A stretch of DNA of 64,000 nt, taken from Gammaproteobacteria bacterium. GTDB taxonomy: Bacteria > Pseudomonadota > Gammaproteobacteria > CBDBNL01 > JAAOII01. Positions 4,454 through 64,000 of this stretch are shown here, piece after piece; the first letter of the stretch is position 1, and each line of letters starts with the position of its first letter. Position numbers and translations under genes: made by a program. The notes under the pieces were generated by a model. The model made no database searches, was not told the origin of the DNA, and saw only the letters and a list, made by a program, of their open reading frames with translations. The stretch is taken from the NCBI GenBank assembly GCA_965207945.1, contig OZ242303.1:61199-125198 (forward strand), written 5' to 3'.

Positions 4454-7117
4454 ATGATTGATAAACAGACAAGCGGAAAAGCAGCAGAGCCGCCTAAAAA
4501 AGATGCGGGCAAATCCTCTGGAAACTCCGCTACAAAACCCGCAATAAAGATTGCAAAGGTTGCGCGTAAAAGTGCAACAGCAAAAACATTGAAGGCATCA
4601 GAAGTGCTAAAGTCGTCGTCAAAGGCAGTAAAGCCATCAGGGGCGTCAAAGCCGTTAAGCAAGCAAGCCAAGCCAGTTGCGGTTAAAAAAGCAAAACCAG
4701 CTGCTTCCGCTTCTTCCAAGCCAGCGAAGGGAACAGCGAAGGGAACTAAGTCAGCTAAGCCCAAGTCAGCAGCACCTAAAGCAGTTGTTTCTAAGAAGAG
4801 TGCATCAAGTCCATCCAAGACGAGCAAACCTTCAACTACAGCTAATAAGAAGGCAAAACCCGTCACCAAGGCAGCTGCTAAACCATCAGCCAAGCCATCC
4901 GCTAAATCATCAACCAAATTAAAGTCAGGGTCAAAGCTGACATCACGCAATAAATCTAATACTAAACATAAAGAGGGGACAAAAATGTTATCTACAGCTA
5001 CAACAACCGCAAACAAAGCGGAAGAGACGAGAGTAATAAAAACGGCAGACGCTTTAAATAAAACGGGAAATAAAACGGGAAAGAAAGCCAGTAAAAGCGT
5101 ATCAGCTAAACCAGCAACTAAAGGAAAAACAAAAGCTAAAATTACTGCATCAAACCAGAAAGCAGCTACCAGTAAAAAGACATCGCAAGATTCATCAACA
5201 ACTAAAGGCAAGGGGTTTGATGATTATAAAATTAGCGCCAGGTTGGAAGAGCTAATAGCCAAAGGAAAAGAAGCAGGCAAGATTGGCAACGATGATATAG
5301 ACCAATGCATTGCAGATATAGTGGAAGACCATGAAGATATCAATGTAACCGAACTCACTTCCCATATAGCCGAAGGGCTGCGCTCTAATGATGTTGACGT
5401 TAAAGACGAAAGTGAAAGCGATTTGGATTATAACGTTAGCGGCTTGTATGACGATGATGATTCAAGCTCGGACGTAAAAGTAGATGCAGATAGTTTAGGG
5501 GATGCTCCTTCAAGCGGAAATTTCTTGGCAGGGAGTATAGATGATATGGACCACCTAAGCCCCGAGGAATTAACTGGACCAGGCAGAGGGGCAATAAGCG
5601 CTCCAATAAAAATGTATATGCGCCAGATGGGTTCTCATGCTCTGCTGGATCGTGAAGAAGAATTAACCTTAGCCAAAAGGATAGAACACAATATGCGTAG
5701 TGTGATGGGGCAGCTGGCTTATTTTCACTACGAAGTTCAGAAAGTAGTTGATAGCCATAATGCAGCTCATAAAGCCAAAGGTAAATTTAATGAGGTGTGC
5801 ATGGCGCTTTATCGTGAAGATGAAGTAGATATGACAGCTCAGATAGCTGAAGTAAAGAAGAACATGCCCAAGAGTGTTTCGGTGCAGAAGCGCCGCAGCA
5901 ATATCAGCCAACGCATGAAGAAGCTGCGCAGCGATATGAACGATATAATGACTCGCTTGGAAAGACAACTCAAGGCAGCCAAACTATCTTATCAAAATGG
6001 CGATGCTCTGGGTAAGGTAGCTCGGAAAAAACAAGAGCACCTGAGCCGCACTCTTTCTTTGATGAAACTGCAGCCCCATTACTATGAGGAGCTAATTTTA
6101 AATGCAGAAAACCTATTGCGTTCTATTTATAAGGCGGAAGAGGTTATAGAAAACATAGCAGTTGGCAAGGCGGGCTACGACAAAGAACTTATTCACGAAA
6201 AGGTAATATCCACTCCTCGCTATTTTACCTCTCTGGCAAAACGCACTGGACCTAAGGCGAAGATAATTGAAAAACATCTGAAAGAACTTGAAGATGCAGC
6301 CAGTGATTTGCTTATGGTAGTCATGGTATGTAATATGCCGTTAGATATGATTAAGAAATTGACTAAGAATATTCTCACCGCGAATCGCCAAGCAGATAAG
6401 GATAAAAAGAAAATGGTAGAGGCAAATTTAAGGTTGGTTATCTCAATTGCTAAAAGATATACTAATCGCGGACAACAATTGCTGGACTTAATCCAAGAAG
6501 GCAATATTGGATTGATGAAGGCAGTGGATAAGTTTGAATATAAAAGAGGATTCAAGTTCTCTACTTATGCTACTTGGTGGATAAGACAAGCAGTTACCCG
6601 CTCTATCGCCGACCAAGCGCGCACTATACGGGTGCCCGTCCACATGATAGAGACAATGAATAAACTCAGCCGTCTGCAAAGAACCGCCATGCAGAAATAT
6701 CAGAGAGAAGCAACTCCGCAAGAACTCGCAGTGGAGATGGAATTGCCAGAAGATAAAATCCACCGCATGCTGAAAATTGCTAAAGAGACAATTTCTACCG
6801 AGACCCCAGTGGGAGATGAGGAGGACGCAAGTTTGAAGGATTTTATTGAAGACACCCAAACCCTATCTCCTTATGAAACAACTCTAAAGACAAACCTAAA
6901 GACCGAGATGCATAAAGCAATTAGCTCTTTACCCGAGAAAGAGGCAAAGGTGTTGAGTATGAGATTTGGCTTGGAAACCAATAGCGACTATACATTGGAT
7001 GAGATTAGCCGCCAACTTTCGGTAACCCGTGAAAGAATTAGACAGATAGAATCCCGTGCCCTGCGCCGCCTGAATAATTTAGCTAATGTTGAAACAATAA
7101 AAGAATTTAGGGAATAA
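4454..7117 (+). CDS. rpoD: RNA polymerase sigma-70 (RpoD) with a ~250-aa Lys/Ala-rich histone-H1-like N-terminal extension. An alternative internal start at 4985 is possible.
   Basis: Regions 1.2 through 4 are conserved ([10 protein letters not shown], the [19 protein letters not shown] 2.4/-10 recognition segment, and the region 4 helix-turn-helix). The N-terminal 250 aa are KPAAK/KSAKP repeats, and the ORF stays open through them. Confidence 0.9.
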
Positions 7118-7168: not shown

Positions 7169-7242
7169 GGGCCTGTAGCTCAGTCGGTTAGAGCAGTGGA
7201 CTCATAATCCATTGGTCGTAGGTTCGAGTCCTACCGGGCCCA
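7169..7242 (+). tRNA. tRNA with a CAU anticodon. By synteny after rpoD this is probably tRNA-Ile2 (ileX-like, lysidine-modified); elongator tRNA-Met is the alternative.
   Basis: A 74-nt cloverleaf can be drawn: acceptor GGGCCTG/CGGGCCC, D-stem GCTC/GAGC, anticodon loop CTCATAA, T-arm GTAGG-TTCGAGT-CCTAC. CCA is not encoded. Confidence 0.85.
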
Positions 7243-7259
7243 CTATTTATAAATACTTA

Positions 7260-10200
7260 TCAATCCACCCACAACCTGGCATTGTAAAACATTGCTTGCC
7301 AAGGGGTTATATAAGAGGTTGCCACCTCCGCTTTTCTTTGTATGGCTGTGGCGGATTTATCATGCCAGCACTGATTCACTCTTCTTAACGTCCTTTCTGG
7401 ATGCGGCATTAATAGCGTAACCCTGCCATCTTTGGATGTCATACCGGCAATGCCATGCTCAGAACCATTGGGATTGAGCGGATAAGCGGGATTATCATTT
7501 CCCTGTCCGTCTGTATAAACCATTGCTGCTCGTTTCTTGTTAAGCGCCTGTTCGCCGTCCTTGCTCCTGCTAAAAGTTGCCATGCCTTCACCATGTGCCG
7601 AAGCAATTGGTATAACGCTACCTTCCATGCCTGTAAAAAATATACTTGGTGATTTGCATATTTTCACCATAACCGTACGTGCTTCAAACCTACGTGATTC
7701 GTTACGCTGGAAGCGGCAATTCCAATCCGCCCCTTCAATAATCTCCTGTAGGCGAGACAGCACCTGACAACCATTGCATATCCCCAGCGTAAAGGTATCC
7801 TTGCGTTGAAAGAATTGCTGAAACTCTTCTTTAAGTTTGGGATTATATAGAATGCTTGCCGCCCAACCAACTCCAGCGCCCAAAGCATCGCCGTAAGTAA
7901 AGCCGCCACAGAAAACTGCCCCTTTATAATCCTTCAATTTATCGGAGCCATCTTTTTTGAGGTCATTTATATGCACATCCACCGCCTCAAAACCCGCATT
8001 ATGAAAGGCAAGAGCGGTTTCTATATTACTATTCACTCCCTGTGTGCGCAAAATTGCAACCTTAGGACGGCTTTTGTTTAGCAGCTTTATGCTGTTATAG
8101 CTATTATATTTCCCCGCCATATCAAACTTAATATTCTCTTGAATTCCTTTATAGTTAAAATCTTCTATTAGGAGCGCTTCCTGTTTAACACACTGTGGAT
8201 TATCATCCCTGAGTTCACGTATATTATCTGAAACCTTGTTCCACAACGAACGCATTGCACTCATCTTTTTATCTATCAGAGTCCGTCCAGCACAGCTAAT
8301 TTCTATCCTATCTTTATCAATGGGGACGCCAAGCTTATGCACAACTAAATTATGTTGCTTTCCACGCTCTAATACCTTACTCTCATTCTCGGGCGCCACT
8401 TGGATAACAGCACCTGCCTCTTCACCAAATAGGGCGGTATACTCATTCTGCTGTTGTTTCATCATCCCAGTTAAATCAATGGATAGCCCGCAATTGGAAG
8501 CAAAAGCCATTTCACTTAACGTTGTCCATAACCCGCCATCCGACACATCATGATAGGCAAGCAATAACTTATCGTGCACTGCATCGCTAACAAAAGAAAA
8601 GAAGTTGGCAATATCCTTGGGCGACTCTATGTCCGCAGTTTCCCCCTCCCATTGTTGCATCACTTGTGCCAGCGCCGAACCCCCAAGACGATTACTGCCA
8701 TGCCGTGTGCTAACCAGCCACAAGGAGGGCAGCATATTTTTATAAGTGTCGGTATGTAATAGTGAGTTGTCAGCACCAGTGTTTTTATAAGTGTCGGTTT
8801 GCAATAGCGAGTTGTCAGCACCAGTGTTTTTATAAGTGTCGGTATGCAATAGTGAGTTATCGCCATCAATGTTTTTATAAGTGTCGGTTTGTAATAGTGG
8901 GTCAACCCCCAACCTGACATCTATTAGTGGCGCCAGCCCGCTCATTATCAAAGATAGAGGCGATATAACATTTTGCTTATCCCAGGAGGCAGACATAAAT
9001 AAAGAATCCTTGCCAACCGGTATAGCAAGCCCCAACTCCTGACACATTTCTTCAGTTAAAGTCCTAACCCCCTCATAGAGATTTGCCATCTGACCATCCT
9101 CATTGCTGGCAGCCATCCAGTTAGCACATAGTTTTATATCCTGTAGTTTCTTTATGCCGCTGGCAGCCAAATTAGTTACTACCTCTGCCAATGCCATACG
9201 CACCGCCGCTTTGGGATTGAGGATTGCCAAAGGAGTACGCTCACCAATTGCCGCCGCCTCACCACCAAACCCGCTAAAATCTGCCAAAGTGGCGGCATAA
9301 TCATTGATTGGCACTTGCCAGGGACCAACCATCTGCTCTCGCGCCGTCAGACCGCCAACAAACCTATCACCAATAGTAATTAGAAAGCCCTTGCTTGCCA
9401 CCGCTGGCAACTGCAGCACCTTCTCTGCATACTCACTAATCTCGCTAATGTTTGGTACCACAAAATCCTTAGTTTCAACTGGTACATAAGAGACGATAAT
9501 CTCCTTAGGTGTTTTAGGGAATAGAATTTCAAGGGGCAAGTTGATGGCATCGGTATCCCGACTATCTTCTTTATTCTCACGATTATCCTTATTATCCTGC
9601 TGCATCAGACGCAGTTCACCACTCTTGTTAGTTTTACCTATTACCTTGTAAGGAGCATTCTCACGCTGGCAGATTTTATCAAACTCATCCAAACGCTCTG
9701 GATCCACCGCCAGCAAAAATCTCTCTTGGCTTTCATTACTCCATACTTCTGCTGGAGACATAGAAGGATCCGCAACAGGAATATCACGCAGCTCAACCTC
9801 ACCACCACATTTGCCATCCTTCAACAGTTCCGCTACTGCGTTGCCGAGCCCTCCAGCTCCCAAGTCGTGTATAAAAATAATTGGGTTTTTCTTCCCCTGG
9901 CGCGAGCAGGCCTCAATCGCCTCTGCACATCTTTTTTCCGTCTCCGCATTATCACGTTGCACCGAAGCAAAATCTAACTCTACATTCTTCTTGCCGCCGC
10001 TACTTTTAAGGGAAGATACTGAACCACCACCAATCCCAATTCGTAATGCAGGTTCTCCCATAAGCACTAAATGCGCTCCCTCATCAATTTCCTCTGGCTT
10101 GATAGCTTGGTCGTTGCTAATCTCGCCCCAACCACCAGCAAGCATAATTGGTTTATGATAACCGTATTTGATACCATCTCTTTCACAACTTAGAGTGCGA

Positions 10201-11507
10201 AAGTATCCTGCCAAGGTAGGTCTGCCAAACTCATTAGCATAGTGACTGCTACCCAAAGGTGCCTCCAACATTATCTGTTGGGCTGATGCCTTGCCAAAAG
10301 GGCAACCAAAATCCTGCTCCCAAGTATAATTATTTTTATCCAACAGCAGGTCGGATACACTAAAGCCAGCAAACCCAGCTTTAGTTCTACCTCCTATGCC
10401 GCAGGCGAGTTCATCCCTTATCTCTCCGCCAACCCCAGTGGCAGCCCCTGGAAAGGGTGACACAAATGTAGGATGATTGTGTGTTTCGGCTTTGAATATT
10501 AGATGACGCTTTTGTTCTCTATGCTGATATTCACTAGAGCTATCTCCCTCATAACGATTGAAAGCAGATATCTTTGCAGTGGCAAAGATAGCCGCATTAT
10601 CTGTATATGCGGAAACTAAACCAGCAGGAGATTTTTTACTGGTTTCTTTGATGAGCCCAAACATTGTCGGACTGTGACCATTCTGGCTTGAAGATTTATC
10701 CGCCGAGTCGTCGCTGCTTATCACAGCATTAAAAATCTTATGGCGACAATGTTCCGAATTAAGTTGCGCAAACAGCATCAACTCTGCATCTGTAGCAGGG
10801 CGTTCAAGCTTGTGATAAACCTCCCGCAGATACTCTAACTCATCCTCACTAATCGCCAAACCCCATTCTCTATTGGCAACTTGCAGCTCAGCAAGGTCAT
10901 CCATATTGACACGCCTTAAATCATTGTCGGCATGGCTATCAATAAAATACCGCTCCAATTCTTGCTCGGACAATATCTCTTGCGTCATCTTATCGCAAAC
11001 TGAACCTTTCAACTCGTCTATATTATTTTTCAATGAAGCAGGAAGTGCATATTTATAACCCTTTTCAATTAATCTTCCACCATCCCAATCTTTTAACGAA
11101 GGAAAAATATCCTCAAGTATATCCTGCGTCTTGCTCGACCAAGGAGAATGAGTGCCACGCCGCGGCGCCACATAAAAGAGGGTATCTCGGAAGGAGTGAG
11201 TAGCCGCCTGGCTGTGAGAGGGTGCATCATCTTTATTAGCCAGTGATATCGCGCCAAAATTTGTACTGAATAATAATTTTTTCAGTTGTTCTTTTTCTCG
11301 CTCATTAAAAGGGTGATCTGGATGAAGGAAAAAGAACTCGCTACGAGTTGCAGTATAAATTGATTTAACAACATGCCCTTTACCGGATTTGGGTGCATGA
11401 AGGATAACTGGAATATCTATCTTCTCACTTGACAATCCCTTTTCGTCAAAAATAATCTCGGTGCGTGATTGTTTGTCCGACTCTGACACCAAATCCTTAT
11501 GATTCAT
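7260..11507 (-). CDS. purL: Phosphoribosylformylglycinamidine synthase, large single-chain form.
   Basis: 1415 aa. The FGAM synthetase core is followed by a C-terminal glutamine amidotransferase domain with GICNGCQ. It carries extra insertions relative to E. coli PurL (1295 aa). Confidence 0.95.
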   Translation of the reverse strand: MNHKDLVSESDKQSRTEIIFDEKGLSSEKIDIPVILHAPKSGKGHVVKSIYTATRSEFFFLHPDHPFNEREKEQLKKLLFSTNFGAISLANKDDAPSHSQAATHSFRDTLFYVAPRRGTHSPWSSKTQDILEDIFPSLKDWDGGRLIEKGYKYALPASLKNNIDELKGSVCDKMTQEILSEQELERYFIDSHADNDLRRVNMDDLAELQVANREWGLAISEDELEYLREVYHKLERPATDAELMLFAQLNSEHCRHKIFNAVISSDDSADKSSSQNGHSPTMFGLIKETSKKSPAGLVSAYTDNAAIFATAKISAFNRYEGDSSSEYQHREQKRHLIFKAETHNHPTFVSPFPGAATGVGGEIRDELACGIGGRTKAGFAGFSVSDLLLDKNNYTWEQDFGCPFGKASAQQIMLEAPLGSSHYANEFGRPTLAGYFRTLSCERDGIKYGYHKPIMLAGGWGEISNDQAIKPEEIDEGAHLVLMGEPALRIGIGGGSVSSLKSSGGKKNVELDFASVQRDNAETEKRCAEAIEACSRQGKKNPIIFIHDLGAGGLGNAVAELLKDGKCGGEVELRDIPVADPSMSPAEVWSNESQERFLLAVDPERLDEFDKICQRENAPYKVIGKTNKSGELRLMQQDNKDNRENKEDSRDTDAINLPLEILFPKTPKEIIVSYVPVETKDFVVPNISEISEYAEKVLQLPAVASKGFLITIGDRFVGGLTAREQMVGPWQVPINDYAATLADFSGFGGEAAAIGERTPLAILNPKAAVRMALAEVVTNLAASGIKKLQDIKLCANWMAASNEDGQMANLYEGVRTLTEEMCQELGLAIPVGKDSLFMSASWDKQNVISPLSLIMSGLAPLIDVRLGVDPLLQTDTYKNIDGDNSLLHTDTYKNTGADNSLLQTDTYKNTGADNSLLHTDTYKNMLPSLWLVSTRHGSNRLGGSALAQVMQQWEGETADIESPKDIANFFSFVSDAVHDKLLLAYHDVSDGGLWTTLSEMAFASNCGLSIDLTGMMKQQQNEYTALFGEEAGAVIQVAPENESKVLERGKQHNLVVHKLGVPIDKDRIEISCAGRTLIDKKMSAMRSLWNKVSDNIRELRDDNPQCVKQEALLIEDFNYKGIQENIKFDMAGKYNSYNSIKLLNKSRPKVAILRTQGVNSNIETALAFHNAGFEAVDVHINDLKKDGSDKLKDYKGAVFCGGFTYGDALGAGVGWAASILYNPKLKEEFQQFFQRKDTFTLGICNGCQVLSRLQEIIEGADWNCRFQRNESRRFEARTVMVKICKSPSIFFTGMEGSVIPIASAHGEGMATFSRSKDGEQALNKKRAAMVYTDGQGNDNPAYPLNPNGSEHGIAGMTSKDGRVTLLMPHPERTLRRVNQCWHDKSATAIQRKAEVATSYITPWQAMFYNARLWVD
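8737..8905 (-). repeat. In-frame tandem 45-bp repeat of about 3.7 copies inside purL, encoding four 15-aa units of the form LLQTDTYKN(T/I)G(A/D)DNS.
   Basis: The plus strand shows tttttataagtgtcggt(a/t)tg(t/c)aatag(t/c)gagttgtcagcaccagtg repeated head to tail. The frame is preserved through the repeats. Confidence 0.85.
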
Positions 11508-11956
11508 TAGAGTAAAACTTTAATTGTAATTGTCTTATATCTATCCGCACGCAAACTCCCTAAAACTAACATATTCATTTAGCAAGCAAGGTTATTGAAA
11601 AAGTGCATTCATTGTAGCACTATTATATTACATTATAGAGATTTCAATCCTTGTAGTCATCGGTTGTATTGAATATTTCTGCCCGTTCTGTTTTATTGCT
11701 TTACCCTAAAAATAGAAGAATACTTACTTAATGGGAGATAGTATAATTCCCCTTGATAAAATTGTACTTCAGTTAGTCAGCAGACACCAAAAAACCTCTT
11801 CAGATTAAACGTCACTATGCAAAGATGATTAAAGAATTTTATATGGAGATATTTGAACCAGGCGCTATAATTTTCATGGTCATAATTAATTTTTTAATGT
11901 ATAATTAACGTTTTATTATTAATAAATTTTTATAAACCATACAAAGGAGTAGTACC

Positions 11957-12754: not shown

Positions 12755-14071
12755 ATGTCAATTACATTACCTGTGATAAGAGGTCAAATGGGGATACATA
12801 CATATTATGTGGCTACAATGTCTGCACAAGATGCGACATTATTAATAAAAATGCCAAGCATTGTACCTGGCTGGAATTCTATTGAAGCTAGAGCTCAAAG
12901 AACGGTGGATTCTAAAAGAGTTGAGAAGGGGTTATATCCTTACTTAACTAATAAAAGTGCCGATAGATTTTTTGGCTCTTTAATAGTTGGAGTTCAATAT
13001 CTGGAAGAGGCGGATACTAGTAGTAAGATAGACAAAAAAAAGAAAAAAATTGTTTTTGAACCTATCGAAAAATATGGGGATTTACCCGTTGCATATGACC
13101 AACCAGCCGAAAGAATGGGAATATTAACTATAAAAGATAGTAGTATACTAGTAGTTCCTTATGATGGACAGCATAGGTTATTAGGATTAAGGTATGCTAT
13201 TGAAGGAAGAAAAAACACAGGGGATGAGATTCGTTCAGGAGAAAACAATCTCTCGGTGGCTAAGGATATAATTTCTGTTATTCTTCTTCCATATAGCGTA
13301 GGAACTTCCAGAAATATATTTACCAAACTTAATAGATATTCTAAGCCAACCAGTGCTACCCAGAATTATATCACCGATGATGATGACTCTATAGCGAGCA
13401 TAGCAAGAAAAATAACAAATACGGTTATTAACCAAAAGAGAGACGATATTGATTTAGTTAATTGGATAAGCAATTCTTTAAAGAAGAAGGATGGTTACTT
13501 CACCACACTTGATACGATTTACAAATGCACAAAGGCAATAATAGAAGAGATAGCGTCTAAAAAAATTCTAACAGGTGAAAGATTGAAGGATGAACTGGAG
13601 AGGAAATATTTTAAAGCAGCAAAGGATACTTGGGAGTTTTTATTAAAAGAGATAGATGAGTTTAAGGATGCTTTAAAGAATAGAACTAAAGCGGGTGATG
13701 AAAATAGAATGCAGATACGCGAATATTCGTTGCTTGGGAAGCCAGTGCCTCAGCAATGCATAGTAGAGGCATTTTTAAAAATTATAAGAGATAAAAAGAT
13801 ATCAAAGGAAGAGGCTGTTAAAAGGTTAAATAAAATACCCTGGGATATAGGAAATCCGCTATGGGATAGCATACTGTGGCAAGGAGATGGGGATACAGGA
13901 AAAATATTGACCAAAGGTAAAAAAATTGCCATTGATCTAGTATCTTACATGTGTGGGGCAACCATGACAACTGCTCAAGAAAGTAATCTATTAGCAAGAT
14001 ATGAGGCTTTATTATCACCTGATGATAATAGGAGGGGAAAGTTACCTAATAAGTTGAATAAACGCAGCTAG
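12755..14071 (+). CDS. DGQHR-domain protein, DndB-like (ParB/sulfiredoxin fold).
   Basis: The N-terminus LPVIRGQMGIHTYYVATM matches the DndB PAIRG…YY signature, and the eponymous YDGQHRLLGL motif is present. 438 aa. Confidence 0.8.
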   Translation: MSITLPVIRGQMGIHTYYVATMSAQDATLLIKMPSIVPGWNSIEARAQRTVDSKRVEKGLYPYLTNKSADRFFGSLIVGVQYLEEADTSSKIDKKKKKIVFEPIEKYGDLPVAYDQPAERMGILTIKDSSILVVPYDGQHRLLGLRYAIEGRKNTGDEIRSGENNLSVAKDIISVILLPYSVGTSRNIFTKLNRYSKPTSATQNYITDDDDSIASIARKITNTVINQKRDDIDLVNWISNSLKKKDGYFTTLDTIYKCTKAIIEEIASKKILTGERLKDELERKYFKAAKDTWEFLLKEIDEFKDALKNRTKAGDENRMQIREYSLLGKPVPQQCIVEAFLKIIRDKKISKEEAVKRLNKIPWDIGNPLWDSILWQGDGDTGKILTKGKKIAIDLVSYMCGATMTTAQESNLLARYEALLSPDDNRRGKLPNKLNKRS

Positions 14072-15243
14072 TGGTTAGATCACTTTCTGCTGCCGTCCCT
14101 GCTACAGATAACATAATAGCGACAAGTGCGGAATTCCTTAATCCTATTAGCTTAAAAGAAAAAATATCACGCATCCAAGCAGACATAGAGGAAGCCTATT
14201 TTGAGAAGACCTGTCCGTGGGTTATTGCTTATTCCGGAGGGAAGGACTCTACTATGGTACTTCAGTTGGTCTGTGAGTTCTTATTATCCTTGCCCAAAGA
14301 CAAGCATAATAAAGAAATCCATATAGTGTCAAATGATACTCGTGTGGAGTCGCCCGTTATATCACAACATTTAGATAAAAGCTTGGAGTTACTCAAAAAA
14401 TTTCAAAAAGAACACTCGCTACCTATCAAGGTGCAGAAAACAGTGCCAGCAGAGAATGATTCTTTTTGGGTGAATCTCATAGGGCGTGGTTACATACCAC
14501 CGACTAGAGTGTTTAGGTGGTGTACTAGCAAGATGAAAATAGAACCAACCAACAAGTACATTAAGAACTTCATAGATAGGAATGGTGAAGTAGTCCTTTT
14601 ATTAGGGGTAAGGACAAGTGAATCAACTTCGCGCGGAAGATCTATTAAGAAGCACACCAATGACGATGGGACTAGGTATAACCCTCATAGTATGATGCCG
14701 AAGTGCTTAATATATAGACCGATTATAGATATAGAGAATGAAGAAATATGGCAGTTACTGCTGCAACGTCCTTCCCTTTGGGGTGGAAATAATCGCGAGC
14801 TAATTACTATTTACAGAAATGCTGCTGGTGGAGAATGCCCTACAGTTCTGTCCGAAGACGATGCCCCTTCTTGTGGGTCGTCATCTGTTAGGTTTGGTTG
14901 CTGGACGTGCACCGTTATTAGCAAAGATAGGAGCTTGGGCGGCCTAGTAGATTCTGGACTTGATTATCTAGAACCCTACATGAATTTTAGAGATTGGTTA
15001 ATAGAATTAAGAGAAGATGATGGCAATAGAACACCCGTGCGTAGAAATGGCCGTTGGAAGAAAAAAGAAAATGGTTCTACGGTTAAGGGACCATTTTTAA
15101 TAAGTATTCGCAAGGAGATATATAGTAGATTACTTGAATTAGAGAAAGAAGTAGGAGAGAAATTAATTACTAAGAGCGAAATTTTCTTAATAGAAAGAAT
15201 CTGGCGCCAAGATGAGAAAAAAGCAATCTGGCCAGTAAATTAA
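14071..15243 (+). CDS. PAPS-reductase-family PP-loop ATP pyrophosphatase, DndC/SspD/IbrA-like, with a C-terminal Cys cluster.
   Basis: The PP-loop VIAYSGGKDST is present, together with Cys motifs ECPTV…SCGSS…RFGCWTCT. The GTG start overlaps the upstream stop (TAGTG), consistent with translational coupling. Confidence 0.8.
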   Translation: MVRSLSAAVPATDNIIATSAEFLNPISLKEKISRIQADIEEAYFEKTCPWVIAYSGGKDSTMVLQLVCEFLLSLPKDKHNKEIHIVSNDTRVESPVISQHLDKSLELLKKFQKEHSLPIKVQKTVPAENDSFWVNLIGRGYIPPTRVFRWCTSKMKIEPTNKYIKNFIDRNGEVVLLLGVRTSESTSRGRSIKKHTNDDGTRYNPHSMMPKCLIYRPIIDIENEEIWQLLLQRPSLWGGNNRELITIYRNAAGGECPTVLSEDDAPSCGSSSVRFGCWTCTVISKDRSLGGLVDSGLDYLEPYMNFRDWLIELREDDGNRTPVRRNGRWKKKENGSTVKGPFLISIRKEIYSRLLELEKEVGEKLITKSEIFLIERIWRQDEKKAIWPVN

Positions 15244-15254
15244 GTAGTGTTATA

Positions 15255-17000
15255 GTGAAGAAAAATCCTTTTTCTGCCAAAGCTCTACCACTGTATGAAC
15301 TCTTTAATGGCTTTATGGCGGAGCACAATATAGAGTCATTTCTCATTCCACAATATCAGAGGTTCTACTCATGGAAACCTAAGCATGTGAAGGACCTTTT
15401 ATCAGATATAGCTATGGCTATAACTGATAATGAAGATGGTTTTTTTTTAGGACCCATTCTATTATCTAATTCCCCAGAATCCCAGAAGAGTATTTCAATA
15501 GTTGATGGTCAGCAGAGGATAATAACCACGTCCCTAATTTTAGGGGCATTAATGCATCATGTTTATAACTTGAAACAAGAGAACAATGAAGTTGCTATGC
15601 GCTGCCTTTGGGATTTACCCAAAGAACTCACAGATATAGCCCATATATCACCTGGCAATATACCAACTAAACTAAGCTTTTCTTTAGAAAATGATGATAC
15701 TTCTTATCAGCTGATGATATGTGATAATCAGGCATATATTTCAGGACCTATTAAAAAAGCTTATGAAAGTATAAATGCATTTTTTGCTGGGTACTCTTAT
15801 GAAGATACTTGTAAGTATATCAATTATCTCACTAATAAGGTGTTCTTTGTGGCAATAAAACCAGATGAACATGTCAAGCAAATAAACAAGATATTTGAAA
15901 CATTGAATGATAGAGGGATGCCTCTTAATCAAATAGAGTTATTTAAGAACTTTGCACTTAGTTATTTTAGCCCCCGTGACAAGAAATTTGATTTATTTGA
16001 AAAACTATACATGTGGCTAAATACTGTGGATTCTGTTGAAAGATATTTGGCTGTATATTCTATGCTGCACTATGATTATAAGACAGTTAAGCGTGAGAAA
16101 AATTTATACAGGTTATGGAAAAATAGAATCTATGAATATCCAAAGTCCGAGAGGAAGAGTCAAATGCGTATTATTCTTGATGACCTCTCATCCTCTCTTG
16201 AATATTACCAGGCGATCTCCAAAGAGGGCAGTTCGCTTTGGATGACAAGGTATAAAGGTGCAGCAATGAATGATGACAGAATGCTTGCTATGATTCAATT
16301 TTTGAGTAAATACAAAATTACTCATCCTATTCTTTTTGCTATAGTTAAAAGAGAACCTGGCTATAAGGTTTTGAAAAGCTGCTATCATATAATTTATTCC
16401 CTTTTAGCTAGAGTGTGGTTAATTCACTCTCTATCACGGGCTGGCAATTTGGAGGAAATATTAACCACTGTAGCATTAGGTATAAATAAGAAAGAAATTG
16501 AACTATCTCCTGATAATCTATATAAGAATATAGTTAAACAAGCTGGATCTCACTATACAGATATAACGGATGATAAACTATTTAGTACCAAGTTGGGCGT
16601 TATAGAATATCCAGGAAATGTGGATCCCCGCACTAAATTCATATTTACTGAGATAGTTAACTCAAATCAAAAAGAGATTAAGATTATGAAGGAAGATACC
16701 CTCAAGGTATCCCATGTATTGCCTAGGGATGAAGGGGAGCTCTCCGATTGGGGTGGCTTCCCTTTAGCGGATTACCTTACAAGCCGCCATAAATTAGGAA
16801 ACATGGTTTTATTAAATGGAGAAGCCCCTCGGGTTGTTAATAGTCAATCTTTTAAAGAAAAGAAAAAGATCTTTGCGGAATCTGATTTTGATATAACTAA
16901 AAATATATCTTTGGTGCATAATTGGGGTCCACAAGAGATCCAACAAAAGCAAAAAGAATACGCCCAGCAAATCACCCAAATACTTTCATTGCCCTCTTAA
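15255..17000 (+). CDS. DUF262 + DUF1524 protein (GmrSD/SspE-like putative modification-dependent or modification-sensing nuclease).
   Basis: The N-terminal DUF262 signature is IPQYQRFYSW…VDGQQRI. The C-terminal DUF1524 His-Me motif is VSHVLPRDEG…GN(M)VLLN. 581 aa, with a GTG start. Confidence 0.8.
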   Translation: MKKNPFSAKALPLYELFNGFMAEHNIESFLIPQYQRFYSWKPKHVKDLLSDIAMAITDNEDGFFLGPILLSNSPESQKSISIVDGQQRIITTSLILGALMHHVYNLKQENNEVAMRCLWDLPKELTDIAHISPGNIPTKLSFSLENDDTSYQLMICDNQAYISGPIKKAYESINAFFAGYSYEDTCKYINYLTNKVFFVAIKPDEHVKQINKIFETLNDRGMPLNQIELFKNFALSYFSPRDKKFDLFEKLYMWLNTVDSVERYLAVYSMLHYDYKTVKREKNLYRLWKNRIYEYPKSERKSQMRIILDDLSSSLEYYQAISKEGSSLWMTRYKGAAMNDDRMLAMIQFLSKYKITHPILFAIVKREPGYKVLKSCYHIIYSLLARVWLIHSLSRAGNLEEILTTVALGINKKEIELSPDNLYKNIVKQAGSHYTDITDDKLFSTKLGVIEYPGNVDPRTKFIFTEIVNSNQKEIKIMKEDTLKVSHVLPRDEGELSDWGGFPLADYLTSRHKLGNMVLLNGEAPRVVNSQSFKEKKKIFAESDFDITKNISLVHNWGPQEIQQKQKEYAQQITQILSLPS

Positions 17001-19577: not shown

Positions 19578-20549
19578 TTAACTTAGCGCTCGCATTATGC
19601 TGATGAAGTCAGCGAGGGATGTTTGTTTGGCGCGTTTTTCTGCAAGGTTTAGGTGGTGCAGGGTTTCTTGCTGGTGTAATTCTTTAATGGTATTACGCAG
19701 ATGGCGGTTAGGGCGGGAGAAGGCGGAAGTTATGATACCATTGAGTGTGCGTATTTCTTGCGGGCTAGTTATACTTTCGTATAGGCATGGTGTTAGACGA
19801 ACAAAGGAAGACATTACTTTAGGTGGGGGGACAAAAGAACGGGGCGGTAAGTCAAACAACTTTTCACCCTGAGCCATGGTTTGGCGCATTAAGCTGAGAC
19901 GACAATAGTTGTCGCCGCCCACTGCGGCAAGTAATCTTTGCGCTATTTCTTTTTGCACCAAGAAGTGCATGTCTCTTACATTGATTGCCGCAGTGTTGTT
20001 TGCGGCGGAATTATTAACGCCATCATTGCTTGCGACACTTATCCTCTCGCTGCCGATGCCGAAGTGGGCGAGCAGAAGAAACCGTTCCATTAAGTGCACG
20101 CTGATGTTATAGGGTAAGTTGCCCACTATACGTATTTCTTTTGATTTCGTCTTCGCCCCTGCCTCTATCTTCGTCTCCGTCCCTACCTTTGCCCCTGCCT
20201 TATTGTCCTCGCCCTCACTCTCCCCAGGTAATCCAGCAAACGCATCATCAAGGTTATCCTTTAGAGCATCTGCATTAATGATAGTTAAGTTGTTTATATG
20301 GGAGGTCTTGTCGCGTAAGTTGGTTGCCAGCTGTTGGTCTATTTCTATGGCTGTTATATGCCGACACCTTTCGCTGAGCGGCAGAGTTAGAGCGCCATCA
20401 CCACATCCTATTTCTATAAAAACATCTTCCTTTTGAGGTGCGATTGCTTCAACCAATCTATCCAGCGCATTGGGGTTGCGTAGAAAGTGCTGCCCTAAGC
20501 TCTTGCGCGCTTTTGGCTGATTATTGTTTGCTTGCTTCTTCAATCTCAA
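19578..20549 (-). CDS. rsmA: 16S rRNA (adenine1518/1519-N6)-dimethyltransferase, carrying two low-complexity insertions.
   Basis: LGQHFL…IEIGCGDGALT…GNLPYNIS are the KsgA motifs. 323 aa against ~273 aa typical. The inserts are GLPGESEGEDNKAGAKVGTETKIEAGAKTKSKE and SNDGVNNSAANNTAAIN. Confidence 0.9.
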   Translation of the reverse strand: MRLKKQANNNQPKARKSLGQHFLRNPNALDRLVEAIAPQKEDVFIEIGCGDGALTLPLSERCRHITAIEIDQQLATNLRDKTSHINNLTIINADALKDNLDDAFAGLPGESEGEDNKAGAKVGTETKIEAGAKTKSKEIRIVGNLPYNISVHLMERFLLLAHFGIGSERISVASNDGVNNSAANNTAAINVRDMHFLVQKEIAQRLLAAVGGDNYCRLSLMRQTMAQGEKLFDLPPRSFVPPPKVMSSFVRLTPCLYESITSPQEIRTLNGIITSAFSRPNRHLRNTIKELHQQETLHHLNLAEKRAKQTSLADFISIMRALS

Positions 20550-20550
20550 T

Positions 20551-21807
20551 TTAGTTTTTATGTAATCTCAATGCCAGACGCACTGCATATTCCATGCTGC
20601 CACTATTTGCCTTGCCACTGCCTGCCAATGAGAATGCGGTGCCATGGTCAGGAGATAAACGTAAAAAGGGCAAACCAAAAGTTAACTGTGCCCCCTGGTT
20701 AAATGTTAATGCTTTGAATGGAGTAAGTCCCTGGTCGTGGAACATAGCGATGACGGCGTCATAGTGTGCGAGATTACCTACGGCAAATAACGAGTCCGCT
20801 GCCAATGGGTCGGATACATTTATACCTTCCCCTTGGAGACGGCGAGCTAAGGTCGTCATCCATTGTGCTTCTTCTTCACCAAGCAGCCCCTCTTCACCAG
20901 CATGAGGATTGAGCCCGCATAGCGCCAAGCGGGGAGGGGGCAGTGGGGATGGAGTAGAGGGGGCAGATGTAGAGGGTGATAGAGTAGAGGCGGGCGACGT
21001 GGCGAGGGATGATGCGGTGGCGGGCGATGTGCTGTCTGACGTTGGCGATTTACAACTAAAATACTTTTGCATAATTATGTTGGTGTCGCGGATAGTGCGT
21101 TCCACAAGTTCTGGGTTAAGCTTGTTAGCAATCTCACTCACAGGAATATGCATAGTGGCAAAGGTTACCCGTAACTCTTTATCGCTGCCTACATCATTGC
21201 CTGTATCATAGATCGCGCTGTTTAGTTTTCCGCAAAACATTCTAAGCATCGTTGTTGTCGCTTGAGTTGTTTGGAGTGCTTGATATTCTTGCGATGTAGC
21301 AGGCAAATCTTTTGGCGCAGTTGATAAAAGCGATAAATCTGATGAGCATGTCTCCTGTAAAAATTCACTGAGGCCGATGAAGGGGATGCTCTTGTTGATA
21401 AGCTGCTTGCTTACTGGGGCGGTAACCATTGTGGTGTATTCACGCTTCATGCATAACTGCACTGCTTGCTTAAGCATTCCCAGTAGATAGGGATTATTTT
21501 CTGCATCTGGCTTTCCAGGAGTTACTTCTTTATTGAGTGGCAGATGGATAAAACGGAAGTCGGTATCATTTGTTCTGGCAGTTGTGCTGCCGTTCGTGCT
21601 GCCAGCCATCCCAGATGCCTTGCTTTCCACCTGACTATTTTCCACCCGCTTAAAAGAGACCTTCAGCCCTAATGACTCTGCTCTTTCAGATAGCATATCA
21701 CCATCGCCCATGAACACCAAATCCTGCCGTAGTTCAGATGGCAGCATAAGGCATATATCAGGACCTATACCGGCGGGTTCTCCTGTGGGGATTAGTATTT
21801 CTTGCAT
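20551..21807 (-). CDS. pdxA: 4-hydroxythreonine-4-phosphate dehydrogenase, with a Ser/Thr/Pro-rich insertion.
   Basis: PAGIGPDI…LCGLNPHAGE…DHGTAF are the PdxA motifs. 418 aa against ~330 aa. The insert TSDSTSPATASSLATSPASTLSPSTSAPSTPSPLPPP precedes the catalytic loop. Confidence 0.85.
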   Translation of the reverse strand: MQEILIPTGEPAGIGPDICLMLPSELRQDLVFMGDGDMLSERAESLGLKVSFKRVENSQVESKASGMAGSTNGSTTARTNDTDFRFIHLPLNKEVTPGKPDAENNPYLLGMLKQAVQLCMKREYTTMVTAPVSKQLINKSIPFIGLSEFLQETCSSDLSLLSTAPKDLPATSQEYQALQTTQATTTMLRMFCGKLNSAIYDTGNDVGSDKELRVTFATMHIPVSEIANKLNPELVERTIRDTNIIMQKYFSCKSPTSDSTSPATASSLATSPASTLSPSTSAPSTPSPLPPPRLALCGLNPHAGEEGLLGEEEAQWMTTLARRLQGEGINVSDPLAADSLFAVGNLAHYDAVIAMFHDQGLTPFKALTFNQGAQLTFGLPFLRLSPDHGTAFSLAGSGKANSGSMEYAVRLALRLHKN

Positions 21808-22589: not shown

Positions 22590-22672
22590 TACCGAGGGCG
22601 AGACTTGAACTCGCACTCCCAAAAGGAACTGGTTTTTGAGACCAGCGCGTCTACCGATTCCGCCACCCCGGC
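22590..22672 (-). tRNA. tRNA-Leu (anticodon CAA), class II with a long variable arm.
   Basis: The reverse complement reads GCCGGGGTGGCGGAATCGGTAGACGCGCTGGTCTCAAAACCAG…GCGAGTTCAAGTCTCGCCCTCGGTA. The anticodon loop is CTCAAAA and the T-arm is GCGAG-TTCAAGT-CTCGC. Confidence 0.8.
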
Positions 22673-29387: not shown

Positions 29388-31394
29388 TTAGCTGTCGCTG
29401 TCTTTAGCCGCGTCTTCTTTTACTTTTACTTCTTTGCTGTCTTCTGTAGATTCCCCAGATTCTTCTGTTTCTGTAGATTCTTCAGTTGCGAGCTTCTCTT
29501 CGGCTTCTTCCTGCTCTGGGCTGTCTTTATTTTCTTCGGCTTCGTCAGCTACTTCTTCAGATTTCTTATCTTCGGTCTCTTGTGCTTCCTCACCTTCTGC
29601 ATTTGCTGTTGCTTCTACGGGCTCTTCTTGTGTAGTCGTTTCTTCAGTGGCGTCCTTGTCCGAAGTTTCTTTTGCTTCTTTTGCTTCTTTTGCTTCCTCG
29701 CCTTCGCCTTCTTCTCCTTCGGTATCTTGTTTATCTTTCAGATTCAATATATCTCCCAATGTTGAAAAGAAACCGCCTTTCTTCTTCTGTTGATGATCCA
29801 GCGCAACTTGGTCTTGTTGCTCATTTACTGCTCTCAACGAAAGAAAGATTTGTCTTTTCTTAGTGTCCACTCTCCATATCAAAGCAGTTAGTTCTTCACC
29901 CACTTTGACTAAATCTGCAGGTTCTTTCATTTTGTCAATGCCCAACTCAGAAGCATTTATTATGCCATCCAAATCGTCATTTATTTTAACTATAACTTTC
30001 CTGCCGTCCACGGACTTGACTATGCATTTAACTTCGGTTTTCTTAACAGGATTCCTCTTAATAAAATCCATAAAGTTATTTGGCTTGGTCTTCTTAATGC
30101 TAAGAGAAATCTTTTCTTTAGGAACATCTATTACAGTTATCACAGCTTTAACCATATCATTTTTGGAATATAGTTTTAATGCTTCTTCGGCTGGGATTTC
30201 CCAATCAATATTGTTAGCATGAATAAAACCGTCTAAATATTCATTAAGTTCCACAAACATTCCAAACTCTTTTATGTCTTTAATCCTGGATTCTACAATA
30301 TCACCTGCTGAATTGAGTTGCGCATATTCATCCCAAGGATTATTAAAGCATTGTTTATAGCCCAATGATATGCGGCGATTTTGAATATCTATGGAGAGGA
30401 TTTTAATGTTTACTGTATCGCCAACCTTAACATAGTTTGCGGGGCGGGGCGATTTATTTACCCAGTCAATCTCAGAAATATGAACCAATCCCACTATACC
30501 AGGAGCAAGCTCAACAAAGAAGCCGTATTTATCAATCTTAGTTACTAAGCCACTAACTTCTTGACCTTCCTCAATCTTACCTTCAAGCTCATCCCAAGGG
30601 TTATTTTGCATCTCGCGTAAACTAAGTGATAAGCGGTTCTTTTCTCTATTATAATTAATGACCTTAAATTCATACTCTTCCCCGACTTTTAGCACCTCAC
30701 TGGGGTGTTGAATTCTTTGCCACATAATATCGGCTATGTATACCAGCCCTTCGCCTTTGCCGAGATCTATAAAAGCACCGAAATCCATAATCTTCTTAAC
30801 TCTGCCCCTGACAGTTCCAGCTTCCATTAGTGATTCAAAGAATATTTGTTTATCTGAATCGCTTTTTTCATCGCTTAGTGATTTGTGCGAAAGCACTACA
30901 TTAAACCTAGACCTGCTTATCTTGACTATTTTGAAATTTGTTTCGGTATTTTCCCATGCGGCTGGATTAACTCCTTCGCCTATTTCAATTAATGAGCCGG
31001 GTAAGAACCCTTTAATTCCATCTATGAATACGCTAAAACCACCGCGCACTCTATTCTTAATTAATCCTTTAACTGTTTCGCCCTTTTTATATGACGCTTC
31101 AAGTTCCGTCCATCTGCGCCAGAACTTGGCTTTCCCATAAGAAACCTGTGTTCTTCCCAACCCGTTTTCAACGGATTCAAGCATCAGTTCAATTTCATCC
31201 CCTACGTGGACATCGGAATTTCCTTCGGTATCATTAAATTGCTCAAGTGGCAATATACTCTCAGTTTTAAGATGGGTATCTACTATAACCCAATTTTTTT
31301 GGACATCAATAATATTCCCTTTAATTAGGGCACCTGGCTTCATACTGGAAACCTTTAAGTCCTGTTCTACAATAGTAGCAAAATCAATTTTCAT
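29388..31394 (-). CDS. rpsA: 30S ribosomal protein S1 with a ~110-aa acidic C-terminal extension.
   Basis: Six S1 domains are present (…GFFVELAPGIVGLVHISEI…). The C-terminus is a Glu/Asp/Thr/Lys-rich low-complexity tail (EGEEGEGEEAKEAKEAKE…EEAEEKLATEESTETEE). 668 aa against ~557 aa in E. coli. Confidence 0.95.
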   Translation of the reverse strand: MKIDFATIVEQDLKVSSMKPGALIKGNIIDVQKNWVIVDTHLKTESILPLEQFNDTEGNSDVHVGDEIELMLESVENGLGRTQVSYGKAKFWRRWTELEASYKKGETVKGLIKNRVRGGFSVFIDGIKGFLPGSLIEIGEGVNPAAWENTETNFKIVKISRSRFNVVLSHKSLSDEKSDSDKQIFFESLMEAGTVRGRVKKIMDFGAFIDLGKGEGLVYIADIMWQRIQHPSEVLKVGEEYEFKVINYNREKNRLSLSLREMQNNPWDELEGKIEEGQEVSGLVTKIDKYGFFVELAPGIVGLVHISEIDWVNKSPRPANYVKVGDTVNIKILSIDIQNRRISLGYKQCFNNPWDEYAQLNSAGDIVESRIKDIKEFGMFVELNEYLDGFIHANNIDWEIPAEEALKLYSKNDMVKAVITVIDVPKEKISLSIKKTKPNNFMDFIKRNPVKKTEVKCIVKSVDGRKVIVKINDDLDGIINASELGIDKMKEPADLVKVGEELTALIWRVDTKKRQIFLSLRAVNEQQDQVALDHQQKKKGGFFSTLGDILNLKDKQDTEGEEGEGEEAKEAKEAKETSDKDATEETTTQEEPVEATANAEGEEAQETEDKKSEEVADEAEENKDSPEQEEAEEKLATEESTETEESGESTEDSKEVKVKEDAAKDSDS

Positions 31395-62723: not shown

Positions 62724-64000
62724 ATGAAGTGGGGGCTTCTTATATCTGCGCTATTATTGGCTATGGCTACGACTAGCTGTAACAGAACTGAATATGTGAA
62801 TGATAGACAATTAGAGAATGAGCAAGGCATAGAACAACCGGTAGAAGAACAACCGGTAGAAGAACAACCGGGAGAAGAACAACCACCGAAGGAAGAAAAA
62901 CCACCGAAGGAAGAAAAACCACCGAAGGAAAAACCACCGAAGGAAGAAAAACCACCGAAGGAAGAAAAACCACCAAAGGAAAAACCACCAAAGGAAAAAC
63001 AACCGAAGGAAAAACAACCGAAGGAAGAACCACCGAAAGAAAAAAAACCGAAGGAAAAACCACCGAAAGAAAAAAAACCGAAAGATAAATGCCTGGATGT
63101 GGGAACAACAGATAAAGATAAAAATTTAAATAGCACATTAATTGATGGCGATGGAAACGGCTTATTGGATATTTGGAATCATCTGCAGCTTGCTGCAGTT
63201 TCCCATAATCTTACTGGTAATTATGAGTTGAAAAATCATATATCTTTATCGTCTTGCGCCAACGCTAACTGGCAGCCGTTAGGTAATGACACTATTCCAT
63301 TTAGTGGTGTCCTTGTTGGCAACGACTATGGCATAAGCAACTTAGTTAGCAAGGGCTATCGCAGCGGTGGATTATTTGGAGTTATACAAGATGCGACAAT
63401 AAGTAATCTCATAATTGATGTAAAGCATATTAACTCAACCCAATATTCTGGCTCTCTTACGGGGTTGGCTAATTCTGGTGTGCTTGAGAATATTACAGTT
63501 CGCCTGCTTTCTTCCACAGATGAGATGCCTCATATAACGGCGGTTGCTTCATCTGGCGTGGCGAATGCTGGTGGTTTAATTGGCGGAGCTAACAATATCA
63601 TCATCAATAACGCAACAATTATAGCGGCAGATAGCACAATCTCTGCTTATGCTATTGATAATAACACATCAAAAGAAGCGTATGCTGGCGGATTGGTGGG
63701 GATGCTTAACCGCGGCACTGTAACCAATACCGCGGTCATGGGTGAAGTTAATGTACTGGCGTACGCGTTAGAGTATTCAGTTTCTAAAGCCCATGCTGGT
63801 GGTTTAGTAGGAGACGTAAGAAGAAGCAAGTTAATAGATACCCGAATTGAGATTAGTGGAGATGTAATAAGTAGTAGCAAAGATTTAGTGTCGTCTGGCG
63901 GGGTGGTGGGAAATTGTTTTCATTCCCCCTTTGATGGCATGGATATAATTTTCAAAGGGAGTGTATTAGTAGTGGAGCAGAAATATTCTAATATAGCTGC
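62724..64000 (+). CDS. P9: GLUG-repeat surface lipoprotein, 3'-partial (runs off the window), with a Pro/Lys/Glu-rich (PKEEK) linker.
   Basis: An ATG at 62724 follows GGAGGATTAATTT and the lipobox is ATTSC. The (E)EQPVEEQP…PPKEEKPPKEEK… repeats are followed by DGDGNGLLDIWNHLQLAAV…NWQPLGNDTIPFSGVLVGN…GGLIG/GGLVG repeats. The ORF track omits it because no stop occurs before the window ends. Confidence 0.75.
   Translation, partial: MKWGLLISALLLAMATTSCNRTEYVNDRQLENEQGIEQPVEEQPVEEQPGEEQPPKEEKPPKEEKPPKEKPPKEEKPPKEEKPPKEKPPKEKQPKEKQPKEEPPKEKKPKEKPPKEKKPKDKCLDVGTTDKDKNLNSTLIDGDGNGLLDIWNHLQLAAVSHNLTGNYELKNHISLSSCANANWQPLGNDTIPFSGVLVGNDYGISNLVSKGYRSGGLFGVIQDATISNLIIDVKHINSTQYSGSLTGLANSGVLENITVRLLSSTDEMPHITAVASSGVANAGGLIGGANNIIINNATIIAADSTISAYAIDNNTSKEAYAGGLVGMLNRGTVTNTAVMGEVNVLAYALEYSVSKAHAGGLVGDVRRSKLIDTRIEISGDVISSSKDLVSSGGVVGNCFHSPFDGMDIIFKGSVLVVEQKYSNIA
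62832..63085 (+). repeat. Coding microsatellite-like repeats of 12-18-bp units encoding EEQPV/PPKEEK/KPPKEK in the P9 N-terminal linker.
   Basis: aaccggtagaagaac, ccaccgaaggaagaaaaa and ccaccgaaggaaaaa units recur directly in the sequence. Confidence 0.85.

Follow-up and report, generated by a model that had tools for sequence, protein, structure and literature searches.

A copy-number-variable coding minisatellite in PurL, probably derived from the enzyme's own connector peptide, in an uncultured gammaproteobacterial clade

Low-complexity and repeat expansions in housekeeping proteins of genomes under weak selection are well known in Plasmodium and Dictyostelium, and intragenic variable-number tandem repeats (VNTRs) are well known as such. 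The array described here, a 45-bp in-frame tandem repeat in purL, is a new instance of an intragenic VNTR, and no report of a tandem-repeat insertion in PurL was found in the literature. The array lies in a 64,000-nt stretch of contig OZ242303.1 from a gammaproteobacterium (the window, that is, the whole stretch of DNA analysed), in the gene for the large single-chain formylglycinamide ribonucleotide (FGAR) amidotransferase. Several essential proteins of the window (RpoD, RpsA, PdxA, KsgA and PurL) carry inserts in loops or at termini and thereby resemble the expansions of Plasmodium and Dictyostelium, but here the organism is a bacterium with 42% GC and the insert in PurL has a defined unit of 15 residues, not a homopolymeric tract. 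In Legionella pneumophila, 26 significant intragenic repeats were reported genome-wide in named genes, and all of their unit lengths are divisible by 3 (PMC2639597). Like these VNTRs, the purL array is arranged head-to-tail with a unit divisible by 3, keeps the reading frame and differs in copy number, with slippage as the presumed cause; the Legionella SclB array even has the same 45-bp period. The Legionella arrays, however, are found mostly in surface, effector or repeat-domain proteins, whereas the purL array is located inside a central biosynthetic enzyme, and the purL array, unlike them, has a structure of conserved cores and variable spacers that has persisted over a synonymous divergence (dS) of ~0.4. 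Contingency or phase-variable loci also contain a slippage-prone repeat within a gene, but the 45-bp period of purL never shifts the frame, allows no on/off switching and involves no promoter. A phase-variable contingency locus was thus rejected as a candidate, because all array variants in the clade differ in length by multiples of 3 and no promoter-like site is present. We consider that the purL array is probably an inherited, copy-number-variable coding minisatellite, which would have originated by tandem duplication of the peptide connecting subdomains A2 and B2 of PurL and which is carried in a permissive loop.

The tandem, in-frame, 45-bp nature of the repeat, as proposed in the initial annotation of this DNA, was confirmed by independent searches. 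Tandem Repeats Finder detected it at 8737-8899 with a period of 45, 3.6 copies, 89% matches, no indels and a score of 256, which is the second highest among its 71 rows for the window. A repeat search returned three overlapping 76-nt copies with 45-nt spacing and 88-93% identity, and a 45-nt periodicity is visible in the sequence at 8600-9050. The degenerate 27-mer describing the core, CTATTRCAWACCGACACTTATAAAAAY, has exactly four matches in the window, all on the minus strand, and none in 100 shuffles. The whole array occupies 8736..8897 on the minus strand (162 nt, 54 codons, residues 871-924, in frame) and is composed of four 27-nt cores, LL[H/Q]TDTYKN, with three spacers of 18 nt between them. 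In the order of translation these are core 1, LLQTDTYKN (8871..8897, residues 871-879); spacer 1, IDGDNS (8853..8870, residues 880-885); core 2, LLHTDTYKN (8826..8852, residues 886-894); spacer 2, TGADNS (8808..8825, residues 895-900); core 3, LLQTDTYKN (8781..8807, residues 901-909); spacer 3, TGADNS (8763..8780, residues 910-915); and core 4, LLHTDTYKN (8736..8762, residues 916-924), after which subdomain B2 opens with its first strand, MLPSLWLVS. The earlier count of four copies therefore holds for the cores only; there are just three spacers, so the array amounts to 3.6 units rather than four full 15-residue units. The span given earlier, 8737-8905, is corrected to 8736-8897. Likewise, the description of the repeat as nearly perfect fits the cores and the two central units, while the spacers differ. 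Head-to-tail copies beyond chance, a period divisible by 3 and an open reading frame (ORF) that is kept are the features expected of a coding VNTR, and all of them were found in purL.

The gene itself, purL, was located at 7260..11507 on the minus strand, with an intact ORF of 1415 aa. In profile searches it scored 1466 bits against NF003672 (cut-off 783) and 1353 bits against TIGR01735 (cut-off 1123), and Salmonella PurL (1t3t) was matched with an E value of 4e-303. The Pfam domains are ordered as FGAR-AT_N, linker, AIRS_C, PurM_N-like (705-859), a second AIRS_C and GATase_5 (1147-1414), which is the layout expected of a large PurL, i.e., an N-domain, a linker, two PurM-like halves and a triad glutaminase. 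The domain order and the fold are those of the Salmonella and E. coli enzymes known from the 1t3t structure and from mutants, the overall identity is 44%, and the catalytic residues that were checked are identical. The conserved residues (E. coli numbering) are H216, H296, D657, N1051, S1052, C1135, H1260, E1262 and R1263, and they include the glutaminase Cys-His-Glu triad C1135/H1260/E1262 as well as H216 and H296 of the synthetase site. By these features the ORF is a complete large PurL. Compared with the E. coli protein, it also has an N-terminal extension and other small inserts at 269-276, 637-647 and 1388-1400.

The array falls between the Pfam PurM_N-like domain and the second AIRS_C domain, namely in the connector of subdomains A2 and B2. 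The HMMER alignment to 1t3t breaks there, leaving query residues 876-928 unaligned between chain positions 830 and 834, and the site corresponds to residues 817-828 of E. coli K-12 PurL. Core 1 occupies the native position and is aligned to E. coli Q818-E822; the counterpart of the insertion site in the Salmonella and E. coli enzymes is the A2-B2 connector at E822-L826 (E. coli numbering), and the connector of the window PurL is 48 residues longer than theirs. The active site of the formylglycinamidine ribonucleotide (FGAM) synthetase is not in the A2/B2 half, which is the gene-duplicated half of PurL and harbours an auxiliary ADP site with no known function (PMC3815217). Mapping the repeat onto a PurL structure, as had been suggested, thus placed it at a connector on the non-catalytic half. 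Of 47 typical PurLs, 46 have 16-17 residues between the invariant anchors D863 and L929 (query numbering); this distance is 14-22 residues for the nearest outgroups and 50-73 for the repeat-bearing clade, so that the connector is naturally length-tolerant. The anchor spacing and the E. coli alignment bear out the previous statement that the repeat lies at a short, length-variable loop of PurL, but the E. coli loop peptide quoted in support of it, LRPELTADYDRGQ, is absent from the whole E. coli K-12 PurL.

The alignment also points to the source of the unit. In the alignment the core falls on PurL's native connector, where E. coli has PQLSTE...DNA-LLL, and a single copy was found in outgroup proteins, e.g., LITDTNKNQGKAPGLWL in P0016 (48% identity), as well as in P0010 and P0012-14. 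Inferred from these outgroups, the ancestral state would be one P-[LV]-L-x-T-[DE]-x-x-K-N segment followed by LP-x-LWLV. The simplest reading of these sequences is that the array represents tandem duplication of PurL's own connector together with a short linker, and not foreign DNA; "inserted", as the repeat was called at first, is therefore a misleading word, because the alignment to E. coli, the single-copy outgroups and the anchor spacing all show a unit that duplicates the enzyme's own peptide. Insertion of a foreign or mobile sequence, such as a mini-transposon, a repetitive extragenic palindromic (REP) or miniature inverted-repeat transposable element (MITE)-like sequence or a horizontally spread cassette, is very improbable. 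Coding repeat cassettes that spread horizontally do exist in some bacteria (PMC2996958), but the purL core matches the connector that other PurLs have natively, neither terminal nor other inverted repeats were found at the array, and searches for the core motif in the rest of the window, in JGI metagenome contigs and in 80 other purL loci gave no further copy; within the seven clade loci it is confined to purL. With no extra copies and no inverted repeats, a mobile repeat element (REP, MITE or cassette) was rejected. As a separate observation, this connector also holds an independent, non-identical insert of 47 residues (VIDAPS...LITDATTPS, aligned to window PurL 864-928) in the outgroup protein P0011 (51% identity), and this insert could represent another and older duplication of the connector segment.

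Relatives of the window protein showed that the array is inherited and variable. A protein search retrieved an identical protein, encoded on a contig of 1.86 Mb, and eight relatives at 80-89% identity, and cluster look-ups added two more relatives. The array is present at the same site in all 11 proteins of the clade, i.e., the window protein, P0002-P0009, P0121 and P0122. Three cores were counted in P0005 and P0007, four in the window, P0002, P0003, P0004, P0006, P0009, P0121 and P0122, and five in P0008. The expectation that the copy number would vary was thus borne out between relatives, and P0007 (three cores) and P0121 (four cores) even share one 90%-identity cluster; the nearest relative of the window PurL has 89% protein identity. 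The spacers of the clade are either I-type or T-type with 6 residues, or else 12 residues long, e.g., ISGDEATDDDNS, and among the relatives spacer 1 is IEDDNS, IEGGNP, IGGDNS or the 12-residue ISGDEATDDDNS. Identical or near-identical neighbouring units occur in the window (TGADNS twice), L081 (TGAGNS twice) and L086 (TGANNS twice), and the spacer is lineage-specific in each; the turnover of units is thus still going on.

DNA was available for seven relatives, from the ENA assemblies ERZ25069764 and ERZ25069762 and from the genome record OZ242292.1 (a Gammaproteobacteria metagenome-assembled genome). An expanded or collapsed repeat produced by sequencing or assembly, which the initial annotation had named as a possible refutation, has a practically negligible probability. 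Repeat arrays in general are prone to mis-assembly, but no sign of it was found here: the array is only 162 nt long, its units can be told apart, the frame is kept, and the same architecture recurs in the independent contigs of all seven relatives with lineage-specific spacer variants.

Some further observations were made on these relatives. Five purL lineages (L081, L082, L084, L085 and L086), separated by dS of 0.32-0.47, all come from ERZ25069764 with 6-10x coverage each, and form a swarm of related lineages at the species level that live side by side in a single sample. In P0008, P0009 and P0122 (L086 1081-2100) purL is split at the boundary of the N-domain and the linker, where the N-terminal ORF stops and, after ~100 nt, a new start follows in another frame; this is either gene fission, into a PurS-like piece and the remainder, or a pseudogene. 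The glutaminase domain of P0009/P0122 contains a small tandem duplication, SRFEDRRFIDNRFEARTV, and that of P0121 has an insert after NPKLK which ends in a second YDPKLEEEF.

The age of the array was examined with whole-gene rates calculated by the Nei-Gojobori method for eight genomes, the window and the seven relatives with DNA. Between these genomes purL has dS of 0.28-0.47, a nonsynonymous divergence (dN) of ~0.07 and dN/dS of ~0.18. Because every one of these lineages carries the array, it was present in their common ancestor and predates a substantial radiation. The idea of a recent expansion, which had been drawn from the near identity of the copies, is not supported; the cores are alike through conservation and not through youth. 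One unit alone looks recent: unit 2 (core 2 with spacer 2) and unit 3 are identical at 43 of 45 nt, and a difference of only 2 nt, together with the repeated TGADNS spacer, suggests a recent unit duplication in the window lineage.

The cores and the spacers have evolved in different ways. Only 4 of the 27 nucleotide positions ever vary among 31 cores. The proportions of nonsynonymous (pN) and synonymous (pS) differences were 0.017 and 0.088 for the three orthologous cores and 0.020 and 0.170 for the interior core alone, as compared to 0.067 and 0.304 for purL without the repeat, and they reached 0.106-0.142 and 0.167-0.373 in the spacers. In sliding 27-nt windows the cores have 1-3 variable sites and the spacers 8-10, and windows with at most 3 such sites make up only 11.7% of all windows along the gene. 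Spacers of one genome resemble each other no more than they resemble those of other genomes (0.26 in both). Array-wide homogenisation, or pure concerted evolution, is ruled out as the cause of core identity since the spacers within a genome are not homogenised, and for the same reason the identity of the interior cores is attributed to purifying selection. The H/Q switch (CAT/CAA) is recurrent, occurring in all copies of L084 and alternating in the window, and this pattern suggests some exchange between cores.

Constraint of this kind could also be expected if the repeat were a gained functional module, in which the cores act as linear motifs or beta-strands and the G/D/N/S-rich spacers as turns, forming an interaction or oligomerisation surface or a small beta-meander whose copy number tunes valency. 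We regard this as the main alternative, but a doubtful one. The low pN of the cores, the interior one included, against the gene-wide value, with spacers that are free to change, would agree with it, and so would the retention of the array in all 11 clade members over dS ~0.4 with no reversion to one copy; the core, read from its sequence, has a strand-like alternation of residues and the spacer has turn-formers. A structured module would not usually vary so freely as this array does in its number of cores (3-5) and its spacer length (6 or 12 residues), however, and PurL is a cytoplasmic enzyme whose site in question is on the non-catalytic half and has no known partner. No known protein repeat family matched residues 871-924 in Pfam at E <= 0.001. 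The structure model does not favour a module either. AlphaFold2 was run on residues 216-1415 of the window PurL with a 65-sequence alignment, which gave a mean predicted local distance difference test score (pLDDT) of 81.8 and a predicted template modelling score (pTM) of 0.88, and the model superposed on the Salmonella crystal structures (1t3t) with a template modelling (TM) score of 0.88 and a root-mean-square deviation of 2.1-2.5 Å. In this model the repeat (model residues 664-705, protein residues 879-920) is coil with pLDDT of 28-45 and no secondary structure. Its flanks are confident, with one strand ending at 861 and the strand SLWLVS at 928-933 (model 713-718, pLDDT 92), and confidence extends into the first half of core 1, the block 866-875 having a pLDDT of 88.

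A duplicated connector peptide in a permissive loop remains the reading that we favour, and its proposed mechanism is as follows. A 45-bp unit, consisting of a 27-nt core and an 18-nt spacer, would have been duplicated by slipped-strand mispairing or unequal recombination, and this duplication would have taken place before the radiation of an uncultured gammaproteobacterial clade with genomes of roughly 1.8-2.2 Mb. Units have been gained and lost since, giving 3-5 cores, and in some cases a spacer has doubled in length to 12 residues; the array would be resized by slippage from one 27-nt core to another. The first core appears to retain the native docked position at the A2 end and the last core to lead into the first B2 strand, while the additional cores and spacers would, by prediction, form a looped-out, flexible segment on the auxiliary-ADP half of the FGAM synthetase domain, so that catalysis by PurL is presumably unaffected. 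The constraint on the cores may be explained by slippage that keeps re-registering the array: any core could then become the native connector, and only arrays in which all cores are native-like would survive the loss or gain of units.

Several results weigh against this explanation. The conservation of the interior cores exceeds what is expected of a purely neutral insert, and re-registration, which would account for it, is a process that we infer rather than observe. The disorder of the repeat is a prediction, with just 7 sequences spanning the repeat in the AlphaFold2 alignment, and a second AlphaFold2 run on residues 690-1140 with a clade-only alignment had a mean pLDDT of 29 and was uninformative on order or disorder. 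Furthermore, the codons of the cores are more invariant than expected (21 of 24 vs 14.2, P=0.002, a post hoc test on the arrays of the window, L001 and L081-L086), and because of this synonymous excess selection at the amino-acid level alone is insufficient. Strong codon bias was rejected as its source, since codon usage in the cores is not strongly biased and CTA, ACC and GAC are kept though they are minor or not preferred. The same excess, with the retention of these minor codons, is what would be expected if the 27-nt core were a nucleic-acid element, such as a protein-binding DNA site, an internal promoter or an RNA signal, of which the peptide repeat is a by-product. This explanation is nevertheless quite improbable. 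No sigma-70-like promoter was found in either strand and no internal promoter or terminator in or beside the array; folding of the repeat transcript gave no RNA structure (z = +1.09 vs shuffles); inverted repeats are lacking; the motif does not occur elsewhere in the window or outside purL in the related loci; and the statistic comes post hoc from 24 codons. Taken more broadly, the proposition that the cores are a selected multivalent motif, whether at the protein level (a binding or assembly surface or a small ordered beta-module) or, less likely, as a nucleotide-level signal, is rather unlikely. If it were true, a central metabolic enzyme would have a copy number that can be tuned as a trait and is not tolerated junk.

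As a coding minisatellite in a permissive connector, the purL array would offer a clean natural example of an essential, highly conserved enzyme that absorbs a slippage-prone minisatellite at an inter-subdomain connector and keeps it for long. It marks the A2-B2 connector of PurL as insertion-tolerant, which may be useful for protein engineering and tagging, and it may serve as a ready marker for typing members of this uncultured clade. Taken with the remaining inserts of the window, it points to a lineage with an unusually high load of repeats and low-complexity sequence in housekeeping proteins.

The density of tandem arrays in the window is in line with such a load. Counting arrays with a Tandem Repeats Finder score of at least 50, the window has 3.6 per 10 kb and its housekeeping part (1-40 kb) ~2.75 per 10 kb. 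The purL neighbourhoods of 79 other gammaproteobacteria, 700 kb in total, have 0.5 per 10 kb, or 0.42 in those genomes with less than 48% GC; the density in the window is ~7 times that of the comparison gammaproteobacteria. Inside long ORFs, 46 of 54 Tandem Repeats Finder rows have a period divisible by 3. More than 4 satellites per Mb were reported in only 18 of 119 reference bacteria (PMC6749651), by criteria that differ from those of the present counts, as do those of the Legionella survey (PMC2639597). The excess of repeats and low-complexity sequence in housekeeping proteins, which had been put forward as genome-wide, holds for the window, where inserts were also found in RpoD, RpsA, PdxA and KsgA. 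The lineage, as shown for this window, tolerates many in-frame repeats and low-complexity inserts.

The inserts in these proteins are of several kinds. In RpoD (4454-7117, plus strand, 887 aa) region 1.2 starts only at residue 384. Ahead of it are a histone-H1-like N-terminal extension of ~230 residues rich in K/A/S/T, which has 12- and 24-bp repeats (4722-5086), and a stretch of acidic residues. Ribosomal protein S1, RpsA (29388-31394, minus strand, 668 aa), ends in an acidic, E/T/K-rich tail of ~130 residues for which 9-bp repeats (29442-29720) are part of the coding sequence. PdxA (418 aa) and KsgA/RsmA (323 aa) are encoded at 19578-21807 on the minus strand; the former contains three S/T/P/A-rich inserts, one of them being an SPxT tract of 40 residues that has a 15-bp repeat (20945-20990), and the latter contains two inserts that are G/A/K/E- or N/A-rich.

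Other features of the window were recorded as well. An AT-rich 19-bp repeat (ATAATTAATTTTTTAATAT, x2.7) lies between genes at 11882-11931, ~400 nt upstream of the purL start. The two tRNAs of the window are tRNA-Met (CAT) at 7169-7243 on the plus strand, between rpoD and purL, and tRNA-Leu (CAA) at 22590-22672 on the minus strand; no other Rfam family was matched in the window, and neither the Rfam nor the tRNA scan gave a match relevant to the purL repeat. On the plus strand at 12755-17000 there is a patch of low GC (0.36 vs 0.42-0.43) with DndB-like, PAPS-reductase-like and GmrSD genes, which is probably a DNA-modification or restriction defence island beside purL. Eight consecutive large ORFs of 633-1231 aa follow at 40451-62678 on the plus strand, six of them paralogues of ~900 aa. 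Among those scanned, three have GLUG motifs (PF07581; one also fn3) and a fourth, at 46356-48908, has no Pfam match. The last four of the eight ORFs start with 15-bp repeats similar to GGGGATTAAAACAAA, and 18/36-bp repeats are present in three of these. The ORFs resemble a family of repeat proteins of the surface or adhesin-like type. Directly after the last paralogue, 15-bp repeats (GAAAAACCACCGAAG) are found at 62831-63082 in 3.6 and 12.9 copies.

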